A DNA stretch of 64,000 bases from a virus (Duplodnaviria > Caudoviricetes): positions 1 to 64,000 of the IMG/VR virus record IMGVR_UViG_3300036783_000080; one strand, written 5' to 3'. Of the stretch, positions 21,997-36,638 are shown piece by piece. Within the stretch, counting starts at the first letter, position 1; every line of letters begins with the position of its first letter. A model generated the notes under the pieces. It worked only from the letters and a program-made list of their open reading frames with translations. It was not told the DNA's origin and made no database searches. The translations under genes were made by a program, and so were the position numbers.

Positions 21997-22013
21997 TCAA
22001 ACACACCTCCAAG

Positions 22014-22757
22014 TTATATTGTTTTATTGATAATATCCAGAGCTTGTTGTCTTGACAAACCCTTAGATAATTGTAAAAACACGACTGCTTCTGACTTAGA
22101 AACTGTTTGCCCGTTAGCCATGTTTGATTTAACTTGTTGCCAGAAATTGAAGTTATCTAAGTTCTCGGCAAGTTGTTTAATCTGACATTCAATGCTTTCA
22201 GTTCTATGAGCACCCCCACCAGATTGTTCTAGCGGCGATGTTGCATATCCAGCTTCTAACGATTTAGACATTCCACCAGAGCTAAAGGACTTTACTACAG
22301 CTTCCCAGGTAGCATTAGTATTCACGGGACTAGGAGTGATTGCGCAGTGATAAATCTTCGCTTTCACAATTTTGTCTCCTTGACGTTCTAACACTTTACC
22401 TTCAACAGAGAAGCCAAGTTTTCTTGGAGCATTTGATTTCTTCAAAGCAACTGCAGTTTCCCACATCCACTTCGCTTTCTCAACGTGCTTCAATAACTTT
22501 CCTTCAACCCAAAGACCATGGTCATCAACTCTCGTGTTTTCCGTAGGATAACCAAGAATTTCTGCGCTGTTATGGTCATAATTTAAATATCCATAATTTA
22601 CGAAGTCAGTTATATCTAGTCCTTTTTGAACCAGACTTTCACCTTGTCTGTCTTGGTCAGGAGTTGAAGCATATCCTTGAATATACCATTCACCCTCATC
22701 CTGAGACTTGACTAAGTCAACATCAGCATCGACTCGGAATTTGAAAGTATCTTGCAT
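22014..22757 (-). CDS. prohead protease
   Basis: IQGYASTPDQDRQGE, LNYDH, LGFSVEG and AITPSPVN motifs. Confidence 0.88.
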   Translation of the reverse strand: MQDTFKFRVDADVDLVKSQDEGEWYIQGYASTPDQDRQGESLVQKGLDITDFVNYGYLNYDHNSAEILGYPTENTRVDDHGLWVEGKLLKHVEKAKWMWETAVALKKSNAPRKLGFSVEGKVLERQGDKIVKAKIYHCAITPSPVNTNATWEAVVKSFSSGGMSKSLEAGYATSPLEQSGGGAHRTESIECQIKQLAENLDNFNFWQQVKSNMANGQTVSKSEAVVFLQLSKGLSRQQALDIINKTI

Positions 22758-22840
22758 TATGGTTCACCTCCTTTAACCCACAAGGTGATATTGAACAATT
22801 CTGAAAACAATATATACAAAGCTTTGAAGATATTTTAAAT

Positions 22841-24496
22841 TCAATCAATAAATTCAAAACTAATAAACTTTGTTTCTGACTTGTTTACATCATCGTCCTT
22901 TTTCTCATCCTTGGGTTTATCTGTGGTTTTCTGTTTGTCAGTTTGAACATCTTCTTTGTCTTCCTTATCTTCTTTGTCGTCATTGTTATTAAAGTCCTGT
23001 CCAAATCCGCCATTCTGCTTCATCATCTCTTGCTGTGCTTGTGCGTTTTTCATAGACACATAGTTAGGGTCAAGGATAATGTCACCGCCTTCTAACGGTG
23101 GTAAGTCTTCCTCTTTACGGATTTCATTTACAGTTTTGAATACTTTAACTTGTTTTTGTTGTAAGTCTACAATCTCACTTTCAGACTTCGCATCAATACC
23201 AACGAATGTGAAGACAAATCTATTATCAAAACGAGATACGATGTACTTGTTGATTAACATCTCAATGAAACGTAATAATGGACGCAATCCTTTATCTTTG
23301 GAATGTTGTAAACGGTCTTCAATTCCACCATTTCCAAGTCCTCCTCCACCAGTGTTTCCAGCTCCACCACGGTTTGGGAAGTTAATTTCAGCTGGGTCAA
23401 CTTGGTATACTGCGCAGGCAATATTGATAAGGTAGTTCATCCACTTCTCAAATTCCATCTCTCTGTTTGATTGAGACACGTTAATGTACTCAACTCCATC
23501 AACAGAAATAACAGGCGTTTTCCAAGCTCCTGTCATACCAGATACTTGGGAAAGCCATTGACGTTTAAATGATTCTAATTGTTGACGTTGTAGTCCTTCG
23601 CCTTGAGTTGGCTTTAAGTTCAAGATACCTTTCGTTGTCCCACCTTGAGAGAAGAAACGTGAGTTGTATTGTTCAGCCCATAAGTGAGATGTAACTTGAT
23701 GAATTAACATTTCTAATTCACTGAATCCATAAGGAGCAATATTGATATCTGTTCTTGGGTTTGCTACACCGAAAGCCATTTCATTGGCTGTAAAATAAGT
23801 TTGTATTGAGCCATTGATTAACTGAACATATTTAATCTCTTCTCCACGTTTCAACCCTGCTTCCTTCCAGTTAGTTGTTTCATTCAGATGTTCGGTAGCC
23901 ACTCGGATTGTTGAAGCATCAATCGCATAAAATTCAGCTGGTCTACCTTTTCTGTCTGGAACAACCTCAAAACAAGTTTGGTCAAAGATAAGTCTGTCAC
24001 GTACAATTTTACGTACAAATGTATCAAAGTCGTCACGCTCATTGTCATCATTGTATCCAGTATTCTCCAGAAACTTTTCGATAGCCAGAATTGTCTTTTC
24101 GTCCTCTTTCGATGGAGTTTCATTTGGGTCACGAAGAGATATTTCATAACCAACCCCAGAACGGTCAAAACGAGCTGGACGTGTAAAGGAAGATACCTGG
24201 TTCACACGTGTTGTTAATATAGAAGCAATAACTGCGTTTCTTGAAGCCATTCTTCGCAGAACATCATAAGACAGTGAATAAGGTCTGTCTTTGAATCCCA
24301 TTGCATTTACAAGTCCCAATGGGTCTTCTAAGTATGCTTTTTGCTCTCTCACTGCCTGACTCTTTTGTAAATTCATTGCACCAACTTGGCTAATGTCATC
24401 CATAAACATTGGTTCTGATTTCATCATATTTGCGTCAATGGGTTGCATACCGTTCAGAGAACGATATGCGTCACCCAGCTTGGAAAATAATCCCAA
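22841..24496 (-). CDS. portal protein
   Basis: FVRKIVRD, YNSRFFSQGGTTKGIL, SKDKGLRPLL and TVNEIR motifs; probable start TTG 24496 after GGAGGTG. Confidence 0.9.
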   Translation of the reverse strand: MGLFSKLGDAYRSLNGMQPIDANMMKSEPMFMDDISQVGAMNLQKSQAVREQKAYLEDPLGLVNAMGFKDRPYSLSYDVLRRMASRNAVIASILTTRVNQVSSFTRPARFDRSGVGYEISLRDPNETPSKEDEKTILAIEKFLENTGYNDDNERDDFDTFVRKIVRDRLIFDQTCFEVVPDRKGRPAEFYAIDASTIRVATEHLNETTNWKEAGLKRGEEIKYVQLINGSIQTYFTANEMAFGVANPRTDINIAPYGFSELEMLIHQVTSHLWAEQYNSRFFSQGGTTKGILNLKPTQGEGLQRQQLESFKRQWLSQVSGMTGAWKTPVISVDGVEYINVSQSNREMEFEKWMNYLINIACAVYQVDPAEINFPNRGGAGNTGGGGLGNGGIEDRLQHSKDKGLRPLLRFIEMLINKYIVSRFDNRFVFTFVGIDAKSESEIVDLQQKQVKVFKTVNEIRKEEDLPPLEGGDIILDPNYVSMKNAQAQQEMMKQNGGFGQDFNNNDDKEDKEDKEDVQTDKQKTTDKPKDEKKDDDVNKSETKFISFEFID

Positions 24497-24510
24497 GGAA
24501 TCCACCTCCA

Positions 24511-27114
24511 CTATTTTGAAATACGAGTTATATCAATCCACAGTTTTGGAAGTACAGCTTTCTCCTCCTTAACTGCCCATTCTCTATTTAATACATTTGG
24601 TTTATCCATGAATAATGTATCAGTTCCATTTTTATCAAGCATTCTCGTGTTGACTCCTGAATCTCTTATTTTAGATTCTTCAACTTTACCAAGAGAAGCT
24701 TTACAAAGTAAAAGAACACCAGAAGACTGTCCCCTGCTGAAGTCTCTTGAAGAATATTGAGCTGATTTTGAAGAGTTCTCTGCAAGATAAACTCCATCAC
24801 CCAACATACGTCCAGCCTTCACATTCGTCTTCGTTACAACGAATTGACCAGATTCTCCAAATATCTTTTGAGATGCCCAATAGTCTGTACCATGATAATA
24901 ATAGTCTGTATGGTTACGAGCATCATCAATCTTCTGGAACTCATCTTCATAGTGCATGTGTTTGATTCTGAACACGTTATTAACTTTAATATCGAAAGAT
25001 GCATGGTTTCGTTTGTCATGCGTTGCTTCAACTCTATCTTTTATCTTTTCTTGTTCGGCTGCTGGAACTGCTCCCAATGTTGTTTTAATCTTTTCTTTTG
25101 CCTTTTCTGGCGTTGGATATTCAAGTTTGTCTAACTGTTTGTAATCCTTATCTCGGAAGGATTCATGAAGAGTTCTATTAAACTTATCAGCATTTTTGTT
25201 ATCTTTGGCTTTCATTGCTTCTTTCAGTTTTGTTCTTTCTGTACCAGATGCATTAAAGAGAGCTGCTTGTCTCATTAGTATCTCTTTGAAACTTACAGAA
25301 GACATTTCTTTCTCAGATACAGGTTCAAGGTGACCATAGTTTTGCACACCTACATAACTGTTAAGAGTGTTGTAAGTATGCTGGTAGATGACCATGTTTT
25401 TAGCAACCCATCTTGCATCCTTCGTTGTCATTGGTTTTAAGTCCTTAATAATCGCATCAACAGAAGAGTTGAGTTTGTTTATGTCTAACTCGTACTCAAC
25501 AGGAATGCCAGGCTTTTTCGTAGAACTTTCTTTCAGAAGTCTAGACGCTTCACCAAAAGCTGACCAGTCAACGACTTCTGCTAGGAAGTTGTCTTTTCTT
25601 CGTCTTGAACTCATTGCGTTACATTCTATCTCGATTGCTACAGAGAATGCATTAAGAATCTCTTGTTTGGTAACAGTTCCCTGCTCATACTTCTGTTGGA
25701 TGTTTGTGATAGGAGATAAACCTGTTGAGCCTAATGCTGCAGAAGCCGCTCTCACAATATCCGTTGATGCTCCAGTCATGTCTATAAACTTCCCTAAAAC
25801 AGAAGCCGACTCACTTACACTAGCATTTGGGTCAAGGAGGTTGTCCATTCCAAGTTTAACCCACAGTTTGTTAGCTTTGATTTTCCCTTTAGCGTTATCA
25901 CGTAGATGGTCGCTCATTCTTGACATGATGTCGTATTTTGACACCTTGCTGATAGATACTGTGTGAAGGTCTTTTTGAATGAACTCAACTGTGTCTTTAA
26001 TAGCTTGCATTCCTGTTACACCCTCTCTCAAAGCATCAGAACTATGATTTTTCACGAACGTTCTCATGTCCTTTTTGAGAGTGTTGAGTTTATCTTCTTC
26101 GCCAACGTTAGCAAACATCGCTTTAACTCCGTTACTTCCACGACTTCTCCAAGCTATGTCAAAGATTCCTGCGTCACTGATTGGATTGACTGTTCCAGCT
26201 CTTTCCTTGGCTATTCTGTTAATCGCTTCAACAACTCGTTTTGAAAGTCCATAGTCTTCACCGCTTTGAGTGATTTCAAATTTTCCTTCTTCAACAAGTT
26301 TCAGAAGATATGACATTGCTTCAGGAGATTCTGGCATAATTCCTGTATGAATTGCTATCGCCTTATGAATTGGATTGGCATCTTCATACGCCTTTTCAAA
26401 AGAGCTTTCTTTATATTTAGACTTTGGAACTGTAACTGCTGGTTTGTCATCTTTCTTCTTTTTACCTGCTGGAACAGTTACTTGTGATTGACTATTTGAA
26501 CTTGATTTACCACCAACACCATCGAATGTTCCGCCACTCTCAAGGTGAGAACGTAATGCCATGAACGCACGCATTTTGTTTATACCTTTATGAGAATGCT
26601 CGTTCCAAGTTAGTCCTGATTGTTTAATTTTATCAACCATCTGGTCTGAACCATGTTTCTTTGTCAACTCTTTAATAGCCGCTTTTGCGTCATCAGTTGA
26701 CATTAGTGCTCCTTTAGCGGCTGTGCTTGCTGCAGGTTTATTCGCTGGGACTGTTGGAGTTGCTTGGCCAGGTGTCGAACTAATAAGACTTTTTGCTGAC
26801 ATCAAAGCACGCATCCAGTTGATTCCTTCATGCGTACTCTTATTCCATGACGCTCCCATGTCCTTTTCTAAGTGTGTTAGGAGCGCTTCCTTCAGTACTT
26901 TCTTCTCAGATGGGTCTTTTATCTTGTTAATTCGTTTCACTTCATCGTCAATGTCTTGCGTGCTTTTAAAACTCCACGTAGGAACTTGAACATGTTGTGT
27001 TTGATTTTTAATCTTAGAAACTTGGTTTGGATTAATGTAAACTGTTGTAATAAAACTTCTACCATTTCTCATTACCTGTCTTTGTACAGGAACTAAACCT
27101 TGTTTACCAGCCAT
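24511..27114 (-). CDS. 867-aa protein with C-terminal PARP-family (H-Y-E) ADP-ribosyltransferase domain
   Basis: YYYHGT...GRMLGDGVYLAENSSKSAQY...GVLLLCKASLG...LNREWAV aligns by eye with the PARP catalytic signature. Confidence 0.8.
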   Translation of the reverse strand: MAGKQGLVPVQRQVMRNGRSFITTVYINPNQVSKIKNQTQHVQVPTWSFKSTQDIDDEVKRINKIKDPSEKKVLKEALLTHLEKDMGASWNKSTHEGINWMRALMSAKSLISSTPGQATPTVPANKPAASTAAKGALMSTDDAKAAIKELTKKHGSDQMVDKIKQSGLTWNEHSHKGINKMRAFMALRSHLESGGTFDGVGGKSSSNSQSQVTVPAGKKKKDDKPAVTVPKSKYKESSFEKAYEDANPIHKAIAIHTGIMPESPEAMSYLLKLVEEGKFEITQSGEDYGLSKRVVEAINRIAKERAGTVNPISDAGIFDIAWRSRGSNGVKAMFANVGEEDKLNTLKKDMRTFVKNHSSDALREGVTGMQAIKDTVEFIQKDLHTVSISKVSKYDIMSRMSDHLRDNAKGKIKANKLWVKLGMDNLLDPNASVSESASVLGKFIDMTGASTDIVRAASAALGSTGLSPITNIQQKYEQGTVTKQEILNAFSVAIEIECNAMSSRRRKDNFLAEVVDWSAFGEASRLLKESSTKKPGIPVEYELDINKLNSSVDAIIKDLKPMTTKDARWVAKNMVIYQHTYNTLNSYVGVQNYGHLEPVSEKEMSSVSFKEILMRQAALFNASGTERTKLKEAMKAKDNKNADKFNRTLHESFRDKDYKQLDKLEYPTPEKAKEKIKTTLGAVPAAEQEKIKDRVEATHDKRNHASFDIKVNNVFRIKHMHYEDEFQKIDDARNHTDYYYHGTDYWASQKIFGESGQFVVTKTNVKAGRMLGDGVYLAENSSKSAQYSSRDFSRGQSSGVLLLCKASLGKVEESKIRDSGVNTRMLDKNGTDTLFMDKPNVLNREWAVKEEKAVLPKLWIDITRISK

Positions 27115-27128
27115 TTAACAACAACTCC

Positions 27129-27422
27129 TTATTTGTCCTTTTTAACACTGATGTTTTCTTTTGGCTTTTCAATATTGTGTATGATTAGAGACACAACTTC
27201 TTCCCCTGGGTCTGTAACAGGATATGGACTCTTGACATCAGGTCTTGAATCAGCCCATTCACACTCTACCCCGTCACCTTGAAGAGAGCCAGCAAACATA
27301 GGACAAGTTTTACAGTGGTCTGTAATGTGTTCACCGTCAAGTTTTACGACTCCAGCCAATTGTCTACAGTAAACATGACCTGTCTCTGTTGCATAGTTTA
27401 AATGGTTTACTAAATTTTTCAT
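27129..27422 (-). CDS. small Cys-rich hypothetical protein
   Basis: 97 aa with C...HCKTCP...CEW; its start overlaps the MuF-like stop codon. Confidence 0.6.
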   Translation of the reverse strand: MKNLVNHLNYATETGHVYCRQLAGVVKLDGEHITDHCKTCPMFAGSLQGDGVECEWADSRPDVKSPYPVTDPGEEVVSLIIHNIEKPKENISVKKDK

Positions 27423-28300
27423 TTCTTATTTCCTCCTTTTAGTCCAACATATTCAAGTTCTCCTGTTGAATCGAAATCAAATCCATCAGGCATAACCGCT
27501 AGTGGACAATTACAGTTTGGATGAGTAACTCCGACAATCGGCTGCCAGTCAGCTACTTTCTTTCCAACGTTATCTCCATTAGCCATTAAATCACTTAGTT
27601 TGAATAACTTTGGAGTCATTTGGTCTGACTTTAAATATAACCGTTTGCAGTGAGAACATCCGTCTGGTGCTGGTCTTCTGAATACAATTGTATCTCCTCT
27701 TTTTGTATTCGAGTAGATTGAATCACCTTGAAGAATTGTAATAACTTCCCCTTGTAATCTCGCATCCCAAAGTTCCGTATGCGCAACCCTCTGCCAATCT
27801 CTCTTCCAGTCTCCTGTCTCGTGTCCTAAATCACTGGCTAGTTGTCCCCTAGTCTTTTGTTTAAGGACTCCTTGAGCAACTGTATCATTTATGATATCTC
27901 GTTCAACTACCTTCAAATTAACAGCCTGAGATTGATTGTTAATTTTAGACATAATTGCGTTAGTCATCTTCTGTCCTAATCCTGTAACATATCTAGCGGC
28001 GTTATGCTTTGCGTAGTTCAATGAATTTCTTTCAACTGTAGAAAGTGAATACTCTTGAGCCTTTTTCTTCAGTTCATCGAAAGTCATTTTCTTTATATCG
28101 TTTTCATCAAGGAGCTGAACAAGTTTACCTAAAATAAAAGAGCTTTGAATCATTGAAGCTGTATCTGATGGAAGTTTTAACTTCGCTAACAACTTTGAGT
28201 CTACATTTCCTTGTCCTGTCGCTGTCTTCAGAATAACTCCTACGTGACTTTCAATAATCTCTGTTATTTTCTTGATTTGGTCTTTCGTTAATAAGTCCAT
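27419..28300 (-). CDS. MuF/SPP1 gp7-like head morphogenesis protein
   Basis: RDWQRVAHTE, CSHCKRL and HPNCNC motifs; start moved to ATG 28300 (GGAGGG RBS). Confidence 0.75.
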   Translation of the reverse strand: MDLLTKDQIKKITEIIESHVGVILKTATGQGNVDSKLLAKLKLPSDTASMIQSSFILGKLVQLLDENDIKKMTFDELKKKAQEYSLSTVERNSLNYAKHNAARYVTGLGQKMTNAIMSKINNQSQAVNLKVVERDIINDTVAQGVLKQKTRGQLASDLGHETGDWKRDWQRVAHTELWDARLQGEVITILQGDSIYSNTKRGDTIVFRRPAPDGCSHCKRLYLKSDQMTPKLFKLSDLMANGDNVGKKVADWQPIVGVTHPNCNCPLAVMPDGFDFDSTGELEYVGLKGGNKK

Positions 28301-28374
28301 TTCTTTTCCCTCCAAATTGAAAAAGGTGAAGAACATTCTCTTCACCTTAATATCTTCATTACAACAAGTATTCT

Positions 28375-28587
28375 TTATTTTTCAGATATAACATCATTGA
28401 TTTCCTTCATCATATTGTTCAACACTCTGTCAAATACTTCATTGGAATCCTTGCGGATTGATTCTGAAAGTTTGTCAGGGAAGAACTGCTTTGGCTCCTC
28501 ACGATTTTTCTTGACATTCTTCAGAGCCTTTTCCAACGTTTCCTCTAGTTCAACAGGATTAAGGTTGTGAGATACTTTAACCGACAA
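28375..28587 (-). CDS. hypothetical protein
   Basis: 70-aa ORF with GGAGGTG RBS at the end of phoH. Confidence 0.55.
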   Translation of the reverse strand: MSVKVSHNLNPVELEETLEKALKNVKKNREEPKQFFPDKLSESIRKDSNEVFDRVLNNMMKEINDVISEK

Positions 28588-28590
28588 CGG

Positions 28591-29238
28591 TTACACCTCC
28601 ATTTCGTCAGCCCATTTAGAAAGTTCACCACGGAAGTTCTTTGTTAATTCGCAAACTTTGCACCAAGGTCTAGTAGCAAAGTGTTCAATTAGGTAAGTGA
28701 ATCCACTCATTGATGGTACTTTTAAGTCAATCTGTCCATCATGACCAATTACAACAACAATGTTACTATCGTGAATACGAGTTAACATTTTCTTTAATTC
28801 AGCTTTTGTCCAGTTCTGAGCTTCATCGATGATAATAAAAGCATCTTTTAAGTTTGTTCCACGCATGAAGATATGAGAACGTGGATACACCCAAACGTTA
28901 CCATTCTTGATGTTTTCAATATTTTCAGGACTGTCGATGACTCTGGCTGGGTCTTCGTTAATTTCCAGTAATGCGTCTTTTAGTGGCTGCGTGTAGTCTA
29001 GTTCCTTTTCATATTGTTTTCCTGGTCGGAATCCCATTTTGCCTTCTTCAACAGGAGAGAACACATAATATAAGTCTCTCTTAAGAATCTTAGCACAACC
29101 CACAGCAATAGTCGTCTTACCAGTTCCTGCTTTCGCATTCGCAATAGTCATACGATTATCATGAATTGAATCAGCATAAATTCTTTGTTCTTCAGTGAGT
29201 TCTAAACCATAAAACATTGAGTTAACATCTAAAGGCAT
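28591..29238 (-). CDS. phoH: PhoH-like ATPase
   Basis: AKAGTGKT Walker A, MGFRPG, FMRGTNL, IIIDEAQN, LTRI and GHDGQID motifs. Confidence 0.9.
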   Translation of the reverse strand: MPLDVNSMFYGLELTEEQRIYADSIHDNRMTIANAKAGTGKTTIAVGCAKILKRDLYYVFSPVEEGKMGFRPGKQYEKELDYTQPLKDALLEINEDPARVIDSPENIENIKNGNVWVYPRSHIFMRGTNLKDAFIIIDEAQNWTKAELKKMLTRIHDSNIVVVIGHDGQIDLKVPSMSGFTYLIEHFATRPWCKVCELTKNFRGELSKWADEMEV

Positions 29239-34391: not shown

Positions 34392-36638
34392 TTAATCCTG
34401 CACACCGTTGAACAAAATATCTTTAATATCGCTTGAAGATAAGTTAGCACCGATTTCAGTGGAAGAGCCTGATGCGTTCTCTCCAAGAAGTTGGTCAATC
34501 ACTTGAGCCTTTTCTTGTACTTTTGCCATCTTAGTCACTTCAATCGTTCCAACCATTCTCGGTGATAAGAAAGTTGTGTATGGGTTTGGTTGACCATTAC
34601 GTGTGATACGTCCGCAACGTTGTACGTAACTTTTTGGCACCCAAGGAATATCAAGGTGAATCATTGTATGACCTCCATGTTGTAGGTTGATTCCCTCTTC
34701 TCCTGCGTTCGTACAAAGCATAACTCTGATTTTACCAGCGTTGTAAAGTTCCATCTGCTCAAAGCGGCTTTTCTCTTTCACTGAACCGTTTATCTCGCCA
34801 ATCTTAGCAGGATGGACTCCGTTTTTCACAAGGTGGTGTCTAAGTTTTTCTAGTGGGAGTTTCTTGTCACAAAAAATTATGATTCCTCTATTTTCCACAT
34901 CTTCAAGGTGAGCAAGAATCGTTTCCAAAGCCCACTCAACTTTCGGATATAATTTATCCATGTCAGCTTTATTTTTATCTTTTACTAAATCAAGGTCAAG
35001 AGCTACTTGCTCAAGTCGAGTTAACATTGCCAAGATATTTGGTGGAATAGAGTTTCCTGTAAGTTTCTGAACTTCGTTCTGAGCTTCCTTCAGTAAGGCG
35101 TTATAAAGTTTCTTCTGGTCTTTATCCATCGACAATTCAAATGTTGTATGACGTTCTTTAGGAAGTGCTGCTTCAACGTCTTTACTGCTATGAGTACGAA
35201 TCATAACAATTTCTTTCATCTTTTCACGAAGCTCTTTCAAGTCTTTAAATCCAACAGGAGATTCAATGTATTTAACGCCAGTCCATACGGTTTCTGTTTC
35301 AACGAAGTCTCTGCAGAAGTCCCACCAATGTCCAACTTTCTTTTCCTGTACGTTACTTAACATTGTGTGAGTTTCTTTTGGCTTACCATTAGGGAATGGA
35401 GTTGCTGTAAGAGACCAAGCATATTTAGCAGCTCCCCAGTACTGTCTGAACGCCTTCGTTGATTTCGTTGTGATACTTTTCAGCTTGTGTCCTTCATCAG
35501 TTATAATCAAATCAGGACAAAGCTTTACAAGTTCAGTTGCTATTTCATCTTTTCTAATCATCTCATAGTTTACAATCAGGAAAGAACTTTCAGCCGCCGC
35601 TTTCCAAGTCTTCTCTGCTTTCTTCCCTCTTAAATCTTCAGAGTTCATAACCAAAGCTGTTTCATCAGTGAACTTCGTGATTTCCTTTTCCCACCCACGC
35701 TTTACAGATTTTGGAGCGACAACAAGAACTTTCTTCACTTCACCTTTATTCAAAAGATACTTCGCTGCCGTGATAGCAGTTAATGTTTTACCTAAACCAA
35801 CCGCAAACCCAAGAATCGTTCTTCTGTTACTTAGAAGGAACTCAACGCCTGTTTTCTGATACTGGAATAAATTAAGTTCTTTTGACATACCTTTCGGCAT
35901 TTTGAATTTAACTTTCTCAACTTTGTACTTCATCTTTTCGGCTTTCGTGTTTATGTTCTCAAAGTTAATGTTTTCAAGAACTCGTTTCACCGCTGGTGCG
36001 ATAACTTTTGAAATCTCTATATTCTTGAATACTTTGAAAGCATCTAAAAGTTGACTGAATGGAATGTACCATTTCTTAGTTCCGTGATAGTCAAACCGTC
36101 CATTCAATAAATCTTTAACCAATCCTTTATCTTCAAACGCAACGTCAACCAAAATGTAATGGCCACCGTCCCATTGTTTCATATTGTCGATAAATAACAT
36201 TCTCATATATCCCGTAGCCGCTACAGGTTTGCCATATTGATTTATAGTTTGTTGAAATCCTTTTCCAATGACAATCGTGCCATCTGACTCTTCTTTATAA
36301 GTTCTTTCTACGTTTGTAAGAAAACTTTCCATTCTGCTTGTCGAGTTTTCAACCTCTGGAACTCTAATCTCATTTTTAACTTCTTCTACAGGTTGAGGTT
36401 TAAAGTCAACAGGAGACTCAAAACTAACAATGAAAACGTTTCCCTTTGATATATGTTTATTAATAGCCATTGCACATCTCATCCATTTAACTTTAAATGT
36501 TTCACTATCTTTCCAAGTTAACCCAGAATTAATCGCAATCGTCATTATTCGCTCTCTATCCTCTGTTTTTAACTTCTTACAGAACTGCTTAAATTCCTTA
36601 GTTGTATCAAACCGTTTTAAGCTTAGTGTTGAAATCAT
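34392..36638 (-). CDS. SNF2/SF2-family helicase-like ATPase
   Basis: LFQYQKTG, GLGKT, DEGH, LTATP, GEEGINLQ and QRCGRITRNGQ helicase motifs. Confidence 0.9.
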   Translation of the reverse strand: MISTLSLKRFDTTKEFKQFCKKLKTEDRERIMTIAINSGLTWKDSETFKVKWMRCAMAINKHISKGNVFIVSFESPVDFKPQPVEEVKNEIRVPEVENSTSRMESFLTNVERTYKEESDGTIVIGKGFQQTINQYGKPVAATGYMRMLFIDNMKQWDGGHYILVDVAFEDKGLVKDLLNGRFDYHGTKKWYIPFSQLLDAFKVFKNIEISKVIAPAVKRVLENINFENINTKAEKMKYKVEKVKFKMPKGMSKELNLFQYQKTGVEFLLSNRRTILGFAVGLGKTLTAITAAKYLLNKGEVKKVLVVAPKSVKRGWEKEITKFTDETALVMNSEDLRGKKAEKTWKAAAESSFLIVNYEMIRKDEIATELVKLCPDLIITDEGHKLKSITTKSTKAFRQYWGAAKYAWSLTATPFPNGKPKETHTMLSNVQEKKVGHWWDFCRDFVETETVWTGVKYIESPVGFKDLKELREKMKEIVMIRTHSSKDVEAALPKERHTTFELSMDKDQKKLYNALLKEAQNEVQKLTGNSIPPNILAMLTRLEQVALDLDLVKDKNKADMDKLYPKVEWALETILAHLEDVENRGIIIFCDKKLPLEKLRHHLVKNGVHPAKIGEINGSVKEKSRFEQMELYNAGKIRVMLCTNAGEEGINLQHGGHTMIHLDIPWVPKSYVQRCGRITRNGQPNPYTTFLSPRMVGTIEVTKMAKVQEKAQVIDQLLGENASGSSTEIGANLSSSDIKDILFNGVQD

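Follow-up and report, generated by a model that had tools for sequence, protein, structure and literature searches.

The first 64 kb of the 150,650-bp virus record IMGVR_UViG_3300036783_000080 (hereafter the window, meaning the whole stretch of DNA analysed) carries its long open reading frames (ORFs) all on the minus strand, and one of these, at positions 24511-27114, encodes an 867-aa protein that ends in a PARP-type ADP-ribosyltransferase (ART) domain. Over positions 22000-29000 the DNA shows 91.5% identity to that of Bacillus phage Nachito (Herelleviridae, Spounavirinae), and by sequence the window is that of a Nachito-like Herelleviridae phage of Bacillus. In the direction of transcription, the genes around this ORF (the PARP gene) are PhoH, a 70-aa ORF (orf70), a 293-aa ‘minor capsid’ or MuF-like gene, a 97-aa ORF (orf97), the PARP gene itself, portal, protease, scaffold and major capsid protein. 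Four bases are shared by the MuF-like gene and orf97, and in the junction sequence the portal start overlaps the last base of the PARP gene’s stop codon. An initial annotation, made from the letters of the window, had placed a PARP1-like ART gene wedged between the MuF-like gene and the portal; the portal does adjoin the gene, but orf97 intervenes on the upstream side and the gene beyond it fails the MuF model.

A PARP-clade catalytic domain

The reading frame is open for all 867 codons, and every motif quoted in the initial annotation is found in its translation. The Pfam PARP model (PF00644) matches residues 687-839 (E = 3.5e-17, 63 bits against a cut-off of 26.7), has its sole match in the 150,650-bp genome here (67.4 bits in a six-frame scan) and matches all 32 homologues. 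PARP1 catalytic chains are the top-ranked PDB sequences by phmmer (E = 6e-7). The alignment to PARP1 pairs the phage stretch GRMLGDGVYLAE with a 12-letter PARP1 stretch and sets HGT opposite HGS, GVYLAE opposite GIYFAD and SKSAQY opposite SKSANY, so that H741 (within HGT), M770, Y776 (within GVYLAE) and K783 align with their PARP1 counterparts. An AlphaFold model of the full 867-aa protein, built from 32 homologues, has a mean predicted local distance difference test score (pLDDT) of 81.6. Its C-terminal domain superposes on the human PARP1 ART domain with a Z score of 20.2 (root-mean-square deviation (r.m.s.d.) 2.8 Å over 203 of 241 residues, 24% identity), with matches to PARP2 and PARP4 structures close behind, and Foldseek matches the model to PARP chains at E = 1e-9. 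Profile and fold comparison both bear out the PARP1-like reading, and the H-Y-E triad and the Met and Lys counterparts (M770 and K783) named in the initial annotation are likewise conserved.

Across the 32 homologues, which are 21-36% identical, Y740, H741, G742, T743, Y776, K783, Y787, N843, E845 and W846 are invariant, and M770 is kept in at least 90%. The catalytic Glu, E845, is assigned indirectly because the hidden Markov model (HMM) alignments end at residue 815-839; it is at least 90% conserved in a 38-sequence set and opens the strand 845-848 in the model, where the structural alignment reaches the last residues of both chains. The ratio of non-synonymous to synonymous substitution rates against Nachito is 0.10 for the whole gene and 0.08 for the ART domain. 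ART-PolyVal (PF18760) was not matched, a Pfam scan at E ≤ 1 giving PARP in all 32 members, and the R-S-E motif of the Alt/VIP2 clade was not found, the domain falling in the H-Y-E PARP clade. The ART domain is a genuine PARP-clade (H-Y-E) domain under purifying selection, and with these residues intact the protein is very probably catalytically active.

The H-Y-E triad is necessary but not sufficient for poly(ADP-ribose) synthesis. PARP1 has a Tyr two positions before its catalytic Glu, the place taken in the phage family by an invariant Asn (N843), and the stretch from the LG motif to the catalytic Glu is shorter in the phage protein than in PARP1. Judged from its residues, chain-forming activity is doubtful.

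Other parts of PARP1 are missing or faint. The WGR domain (PF05406), which the initial annotation had also failed to see, was not found in the genome at E ≤ 10 or in the 32 homologues at E ≤ 1, and Pfam matched PARP_reg (PF02877) neither in the protein nor in the 32 homologues. The family profile extends only weakly into the PARP1 helical domain, which adds about 6-9 bits, and Foldseek alignments of the full model span 360 columns. A second AlphaFold model, of residues 1-672 without the ART domain (pLDDT 81), returned no Foldseek hit at E ≤ 0.001, no PARP chain and no other clear fold, 672 residues being too large for a fair single-domain test; its best VIA-wide Z score was 5.4, on a three-helix module only. 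Pfam often misses the helical regulatory domain in bacterial PARPs (PMC5966428).

N-terminal modules related to RNA-polymerase-binding proteins of SPO1

In the PARP protein, a helix-loop-helix module (about 45-55 residues; pattern G-h-x-W...N-x-M-R-x-x-M-A) occurs twice between an N-terminal β-hairpin domain and an all-helical middle region. Copy 2 has matches to PHROG 13880/12391 ‘transcriptional regulator’ at residues 144-190. Run against the whole 132,562-bp genome of phage SPO1, a profile of the PARP-family repeat found only gp44 (E = 3.9e-5), gp25.1 (E = 1.1e-4) and the C-terminus of gp27 (E = 2e-3); direct scans with the profile gave 20.7 bits for gp27 118-153 and 24.4 bits for gp44 142-174. 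The C-terminal domain of gp27 (Gp27-CT, residues 111-155) is a two-helix domain that binds Bacillus subtilis RNA polymerase, as seen by nuclear magnetic resonance titration, and is required for the switch from early to middle transcription (PMC13401047). SPO1 gp44 binds the β and β′ subunits, and its C-terminal region is required for full inhibition of the polymerase (PMC8208478). On this relationship, the chances that the two modules of the PARP protein dock on RNA polymerase are about even. The initial annotation had overlooked this link of the N-terminal repeats to RNA-polymerase-binding proteins, together with the obligate Cys4 partner gene described below.

The module is not confined to the PARP protein. 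Its other carriers in the same genome are an SNF2 ATPase, a 243-aa acidic protein and, weakly, a 155-aa protein beside a sigma-like gene. The 155-aa protein (118156-118623 of the record, minus strand, beside a gp28-like sigma gene) is a homologue of SPO1 gp27 over its full length (36.7% identity, E = 3e-12), and the acidic protein (120779-121510 of the record, minus strand), which has two module copies, is a homologue of gp44; the transcription-switch set of SPO1 appears, from these sequences, to be conserved in the SP10-like lineage. The SNF2-family ATPase (34392-36638, minus strand) has one module copy at about residues 12-65 (37.6 bits), which would tether a Swi2/Snf2 motor to the PARP protein’s partner, an arrangement that recalls RapA, which associates with the polymerase. 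One related contig has the module close to the C-terminal end of its SNF2 protein, as well as in further neighbouring proteins, and other related contigs have additional ORFs near the PARP gene with one or two copies (L015:8272-8721, L017:9855-10304, L019:1915-2328, and L004:1022-1183 and 2021-2182). SPO1 gp25.1 (NC_011421 88668-88796), listed as an essential early ‘transcription factor’, shares the module with Gp27-CT and gp44, a link not mentioned in the SPO1 literature searched. By its sequence distribution the module is a widely reused adaptor in these phages. We note that the Pfam family PF26856 ‘Phage_SPO1_gp51’ has precomputed weak or faint matches to several proteins that bear the module (PARP, SNF2, HATPase_c and 505-aa proteins) and may model the same module.

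Architecture and distribution of the protein family

An exhaustive search of 1.84 billion representatives returned 400 relatives at E ≤ 0.001, 30 of them at E ≤ 1e-30. Architectures were counted in the best 152 representative clusters, scanned with domain models cut from the family alignment. The ART domain is present in 135 of the 152 and always lies at the extreme C-terminus (median of 2 residues after it). About 60 clusters combine the N-terminal β-hairpin domain, one to three modules and the ART domain, with differing middle regions, and 17 have the N-terminal domain and modules with no ART domain detected; the N-terminal domain and the modules co-occur in about 75 of the 152. Residues 1-50, which make up the N-terminal domain, are 100% identical to Nachito and have a weak match to PHROG 1917 ‘virion structural protein’ (E = 7e-5). 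Apart from PF00644, neither MuF nor any other confident Pfam domain was found in the protein or in 24 relatives scanned singly.

Culturable members of the family are Nachito, YungSlug, LysYB1/2 and JC307. A tblastn search of the phage collection with the N-terminal 233 residues found four phages only, plus a weak match in an Exiguobacterium phage. A 93% identical protein comes from a contig of 149,255 bp that was deposited under the name Bacillus paranthracis and is probably a phage genome of the same type assembled with the bacterial isolate.

An accessory cassette upstream of the portal gene

The position of the gene is conserved well beyond close relatives. In >20 diverged loci, on contigs from metagenomes and IMG/VR with PARP proteins only 28-50% identical to the present one, the PARP gene lies just upstream of the portal. 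The recurring order is PhoH, orf70, MuF-like, orf97, PARP, portal, protease, scaffold and capsid; a variant order is PARP, orf97, MuF-like and portal. Phage SP-10 is syntenic on both sides, and its MuF-like gene is directly followed by the portal, without orf97. No PARP homologue was found anywhere in the SP-10 record, and SP-10, SBSphiC and Goe26 gave no match in a tblastn search with the PARP protein. The synteny of SP-10, with both genes lacking, therefore marks the pair as an accessory insertion rather than core head machinery.

Wherever its surroundings can be seen, the PARP gene has the small gene orf97 with it, and in the reverse direction the PARP gene adjoins orf97 in 12 of 12 IMG/VR loci found via orf97’s own motif, G-x-x-Q-G-x-G-[VI]-[ED]-C in the alignment. 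This motif, together with the invariant H7, C19, C37, C40 and C54, suggests a small zinc-binding fold, and orf97 probably encodes a zinc-binding Cys4 protein. It is the fastest-evolving gene of the block (77% identity to Nachito) and has no family in Pfam, NCBIfam or Atlas. Complex prediction of the orf97 product with the full-length enzyme scored 0.53 (runs 0.31, 0.56 and 0.53), in a range (≤0.60) reached by 7 of 80 solved complexes and by both passing mismatches, where passes are more often wrong unless the complex was likely beforehand; the best of three controls scored 0.00. Of the 80 solved complexes, 58 reach the pass mark itself, as do 2 of 110 mismatched pairs. Agreement between the runs is at least 78% of contacts, and the partner has a pLDDT of at least 76. 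Because the two genes co-occur so strictly, the predicted binding of orf97 to the enzyme is plausible.

A MuF identity for the 293-aa gene was considered and found no support from profiles: PF04233 has no match in the genome or in 10 homologues of the gene, and PHROG, NCBIfam and PDB-sequence searches were empty. The protein has an Atlas language-model similarity of 0.95 to a cluster of which 91% is PF04233, and template-modelling scores of 0.44-0.57 to MuF-bearing clusters; its Nachito counterpart is labelled ‘minor capsid protein’.

The coordinates of the locus are collected in Table 1. A terminator-like hairpin separates orf70 from the MuF-like gene, and between the MuF-like, orf97, PARP and portal genes there is no minus-strand terminator-like site except one weak site inside the PARP gene. 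From the gene overlaps and the hairpin upstream of the MuF-like gene, the four genes appear to form a single late unit, of which the hairpin may mark the start. Within 28298-28348 (minus strand), the listed GTG of the MuF-like ORF, at 28345, falls inside the hairpin, and the gene likely starts at the ATG at 28300 instead. The listed portal GTG overlaps the PARP stop and is followed by a strong Shine-Dalgarno (SD) sequence, GGAGGTG, with a TTG six bases on (24494-24511, minus strand), so that translation of the portal may really begin at codon 6 of this ORF. Late and middle promoter patterns of SPO1 gave nothing useful near the PARP gene.

Table 1 Features of the PARP-gene locus, with positions in the window
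Feature	Position	Strand	Basis
PhoH	28591-29238		
Terminator-like hairpin between orf70 and the MuF-like gene	28323..28348	-	11-bp stem, then T-run
‘Minor capsid / MuF-like’ gene, 293 aa	27419..28300	-	Ribosome-binding site GGAGGG 7 nt before ATG; matches Nachito annotation
orf97, 97 aa	27129..27422	-	Invariant H7, C19, C37, C40, C54; obligate PARP-gene neighbour
PARP-domain protein gene, 867 aa	24511..27114	-	Open ORF; SD AAGGAG 10 nt before ATG
N-terminal β-hairpin domain, residues 1-50, motif GLVPV...TVY	26965..27114	-	Strands 8-16 and 19-27, pLDDT 86-88
Module copy 1, residues 63-113, gp27CT/gp44-type	26776..26928	-	Profile, 68.5 bits
Module copy 2, residues 141-194, gp27CT/gp44-type	26533..26694	-	Profile, 76.6 bits
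All-helical middle region, residues 239-672	25099..26400	-	Structure model
C-terminal PARP-type ART domain, residues 673-867	24514..25098	-	PF00644, PARP1 fold match
Catalytic codons	H741 24892-24894; Y776 24787-24789; E845 24580-24582	-	Verified by translation
Portal gene	22841..24511	-	Phage_portal, E = 3e-23; PHROG 12, E = 4.5e-75

A candidate host-takeover effector

T4 Alt is an R-S-E ART, a late product that is packaged in the head and ADP-ribosylates the α subunit of RNA polymerase on injection. The explanation we favour, and hold tentatively, is that the PARP protein is a functional analogue of Alt: a late-made, head-packaged host-takeover effector of PARP type that docks on RNA polymerase and has a Cys4 partner. 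The PARP gene and orf97 would form a two-gene cassette inserted in the head-morphogenesis unit directly upstream of the portal gene. The PARP protein would be made late, alongside the head proteins, packed in the capsid and ejected along with the DNA when the phage infects again. In that new host its two modules would dock on host RNA polymerase or transcription complexes, and NAD+-dependent ADP-ribosylation of the polymerase or of nearby proteins would aid takeover of the cell. The orf97 product probably binds the enzyme, acting either as an inhibitor that silences it in the producing cell or as an assembly or loading factor. Packaging combined with early action makes most sense because a polymerase-aimed enzyme is encoded among late head genes, and a comparative-genomic survey has proposed that phage ARTs whose genes neighbour those of the portal and terminase are packaged in the head and deployed early (PMC9503650). 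For the PARP protein, packaging and ejection, judged solely from gene position, is a call that could fall either way. A bolder version, in which a virion-delivered PARP builds ADP-ribose chains on RNA polymerase, tethered there by its two modules and held inactive in the producing cell by a zinc-binding partner, is improbable.

Several points count against this host-takeover explanation. Polymerase binding has been shown for Gp27-CT alone, in one study, and constructs with the disordered region of gp27 bind DNA too (PMC13401047), so the module could mark DNA or condensates instead of the polymerase; the module matches to gp27 and gp25.1 are also modest (15.6-21 bits). E845 is assigned from its invariance in the family and its place in the motif rather than from a residue-by-residue superposition, and the prediction of the orf97-enzyme complex is weak by the tool’s own calibration. 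The PARP protein is not fused to MuF or portal, its neighbour fails the Pfam MuF model, and neither a capsid-targeting signal nor a protease site was identified. No Macro, PARG, ADP-ribosylglycohydrolase (ARH) or NADAR match was found in the genome, and hence no reversible system is evident. The literature searched yielded no virion proteomics or enzymology for any member and no experiments on phage PARP-domain proteins, and the PARP gene goes unmentioned in the papers on YungSlug, Nachito and JC307.

The lack of a MuF or portal fusion also suits an enzyme that is never packaged, one that works late inside the cell on RNA polymerase or condensates, shutting off host or earlier phage transcription, or that modifies head or portal components during assembly. 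The PARP gene appears to be co-transcribed with late head genes, and the matches of its modules are to gp27, gp44 and gp25.1, which do their work within the infected cell, both as this alternative would have it. Even so, head cargo is the better fit for a gene kept so strictly beside the portal gene in diverged phages, an enzyme that modifies the polymerase has little time left if it appears only as the cycle ends, and the obligate partner fits an enzyme that is silenced in the producing cell; we consider an unpackaged enzyme rather unlikely. PARP-family enzymes can also modify nucleic acids, and the substrate could be nucleic acid or the NAD+ pool rather than protein: DNA or RNA ends might be ADP-ribosylated, protecting the incoming genome or damaging host DNA, NAD+ might be drained, or NAD+-derived defence signals might be intercepted. 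Other bearers of the module are DNA enzymes (the SNF2 ATPase and a protein with a ParB-like nuclease PHROG match), as would be expected if the module led to DNA, and the DNA binding of the gp27 constructs that carry the disordered region (PMC13401047) points the same way. This alternative is nonetheless improbable, given that the counterparts of the PARP1 acceptor-site residues, M770, K783 and E845, are conserved, which points to transfer and not to plain hydrolysis, that no DNA-break-sensing domain (WGR or zinc finger) was detected in the enzyme, and that none of the families searched yielded an NAD+ salvage or eraser partner in the genome.

A further possibility is a polymorphic toxin of the MuF-toxin kind, with orf97 as the immunity gene, directed mainly against competing bacteria or phages. 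An ART domain that always ends the protein, preceded by N-terminal and middle parts that vary, a small gene that is always adjacent, and the weak complex prediction (0.53 against 0.00 for the best control) would all be in keeping with such a pair. But the gene’s hosts are large virulent myoviruses of the Herelleviridae type, not temperate phages, orf97 usually lies upstream of the enzyme gene and not downstream, there is no MuF fusion, and the N-terminal region is conserved together with the ART domain in about 60 clusters instead of being swapped. A toxin-immunity pair is accordingly very improbable, and we retain the packaged host-takeover effector as the favoured explanation.

Relation to known systems

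Phage enzymes of this clade were on record. Characterised phage ARTs, namely T4 Alt, ModA and ModB, belong to the R-S-E clade. The PARP protein resembles Alt in the proposed logic, that is, a late, head-carried enzyme that would modify host polymerase at the start of the next infection, and differs in having H-Y-E in place of R-S-E and no sequence relation; the case for polymerase targeting is drawn here from docking-type modules and that for packaging from gene position. MuF-fused polymorphic toxins and polyvalent proteins place a C-terminal enzymatic effector in a head-gene neighbourhood, and the PARP protein, too, has a C-terminal effector enzyme and is encoded beside a putative MuF-type gene. 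Unlike them, it is encoded by a separate gene, PF04233 is unmatched in the genome, and its ART domain is PF00644 and not ART-PolyVal or Alt/VIP2.

Among cellular enzymes, the closest comparison is with the ART domains of PARP1, PARP2 and PARP4 (Z scores of 19-20, r.m.s.d. 2.6-3.1 Å over about 200 residues, 18-24% identity). The H-Y-E triad and the donor-site motifs HG[ST], G.GhY.A and SKSA.Y are held in common with eukaryotic PARPs, whereas the phage protein lacks the WGR, zinc-finger and BRCT domains and any Pfam-detectable helical domain of those enzymes, everything N-terminal to its ART domain being phage-specific. Bacterial PARPs, such as those of Herpetosiphon aurantiacus and Clostridioides difficile CD160, share the H-Y-E PARP catalytic domain but have WGR, with or without PARP_reg, and some are paired with PARG (PMC5966428); the phage protein has no WGR, and its genome encodes neither PARG nor Macro. 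Small early regulators of SPO1 share the helix-loop-helix module (the gp27 C-terminal domain, the gp44 C-terminal region and gp25.1); these have disordered regions and no enzyme domain, in contrast to the two copies fused here to an ART domain and the one fused to an SNF2 ATPase.

The initial annotation had called the locus the best candidate for an undescribed system, which was overstated. The survey by Iyer, Burroughs, Anantharaman and Aravind (2022) lists phage PART/PARP ARTs, counting these among the commonest viral ART families, and the present protein fits that set as a PARP-clade ART of a myovirus encoded beside portal and head genes (PMC9503650). The homologue in YungSlug is annotated ‘PARP polymerase’, and UniProt already marks a PARP domain at the C-terminus of large phage proteins, one of them from Pseudomonas phage pf16. 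Comparative genomics had already described phage ARTs of the PART/PARP family and suggested that such enzymes are packaged in the head (PMC9503650). What is new is the two modules of polymerase-binding type, the obligate Cys4 partner, and the pair as an accessory cassette of one Herelleviridae lineage; gp27CT/gp44-type modules, such a partner and the SP10-like lineage are not described in the text of the survey that was searched (PMC9503650). No assay of any phage PARP-clade enzyme was found in the literature searched.

The family offers a testable case, with an intact PARP active site, a likely polymerase docking site and a candidate regulator gene, and with SP-10, Goe26 and SBSphiC as natural controls that lack the cassette. 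If the link to RNA polymerase is true, phages would have repeatedly solved the early modification of host transcription with unrelated ART folds, and the small module appended to several enzymes of SPO1-like phages would gain a function. Were the virion-delivered PARP found to build chains and to be silenced by its partner, bacteria would offer their first described case of host takeover based on poly(ADP-ribose), and a small protein encoded by a phage would for the first time be seen to regulate a PARP; if chains are made, poly(ADP-ribosyl)ation would enter the conflict between phages and bacteria.

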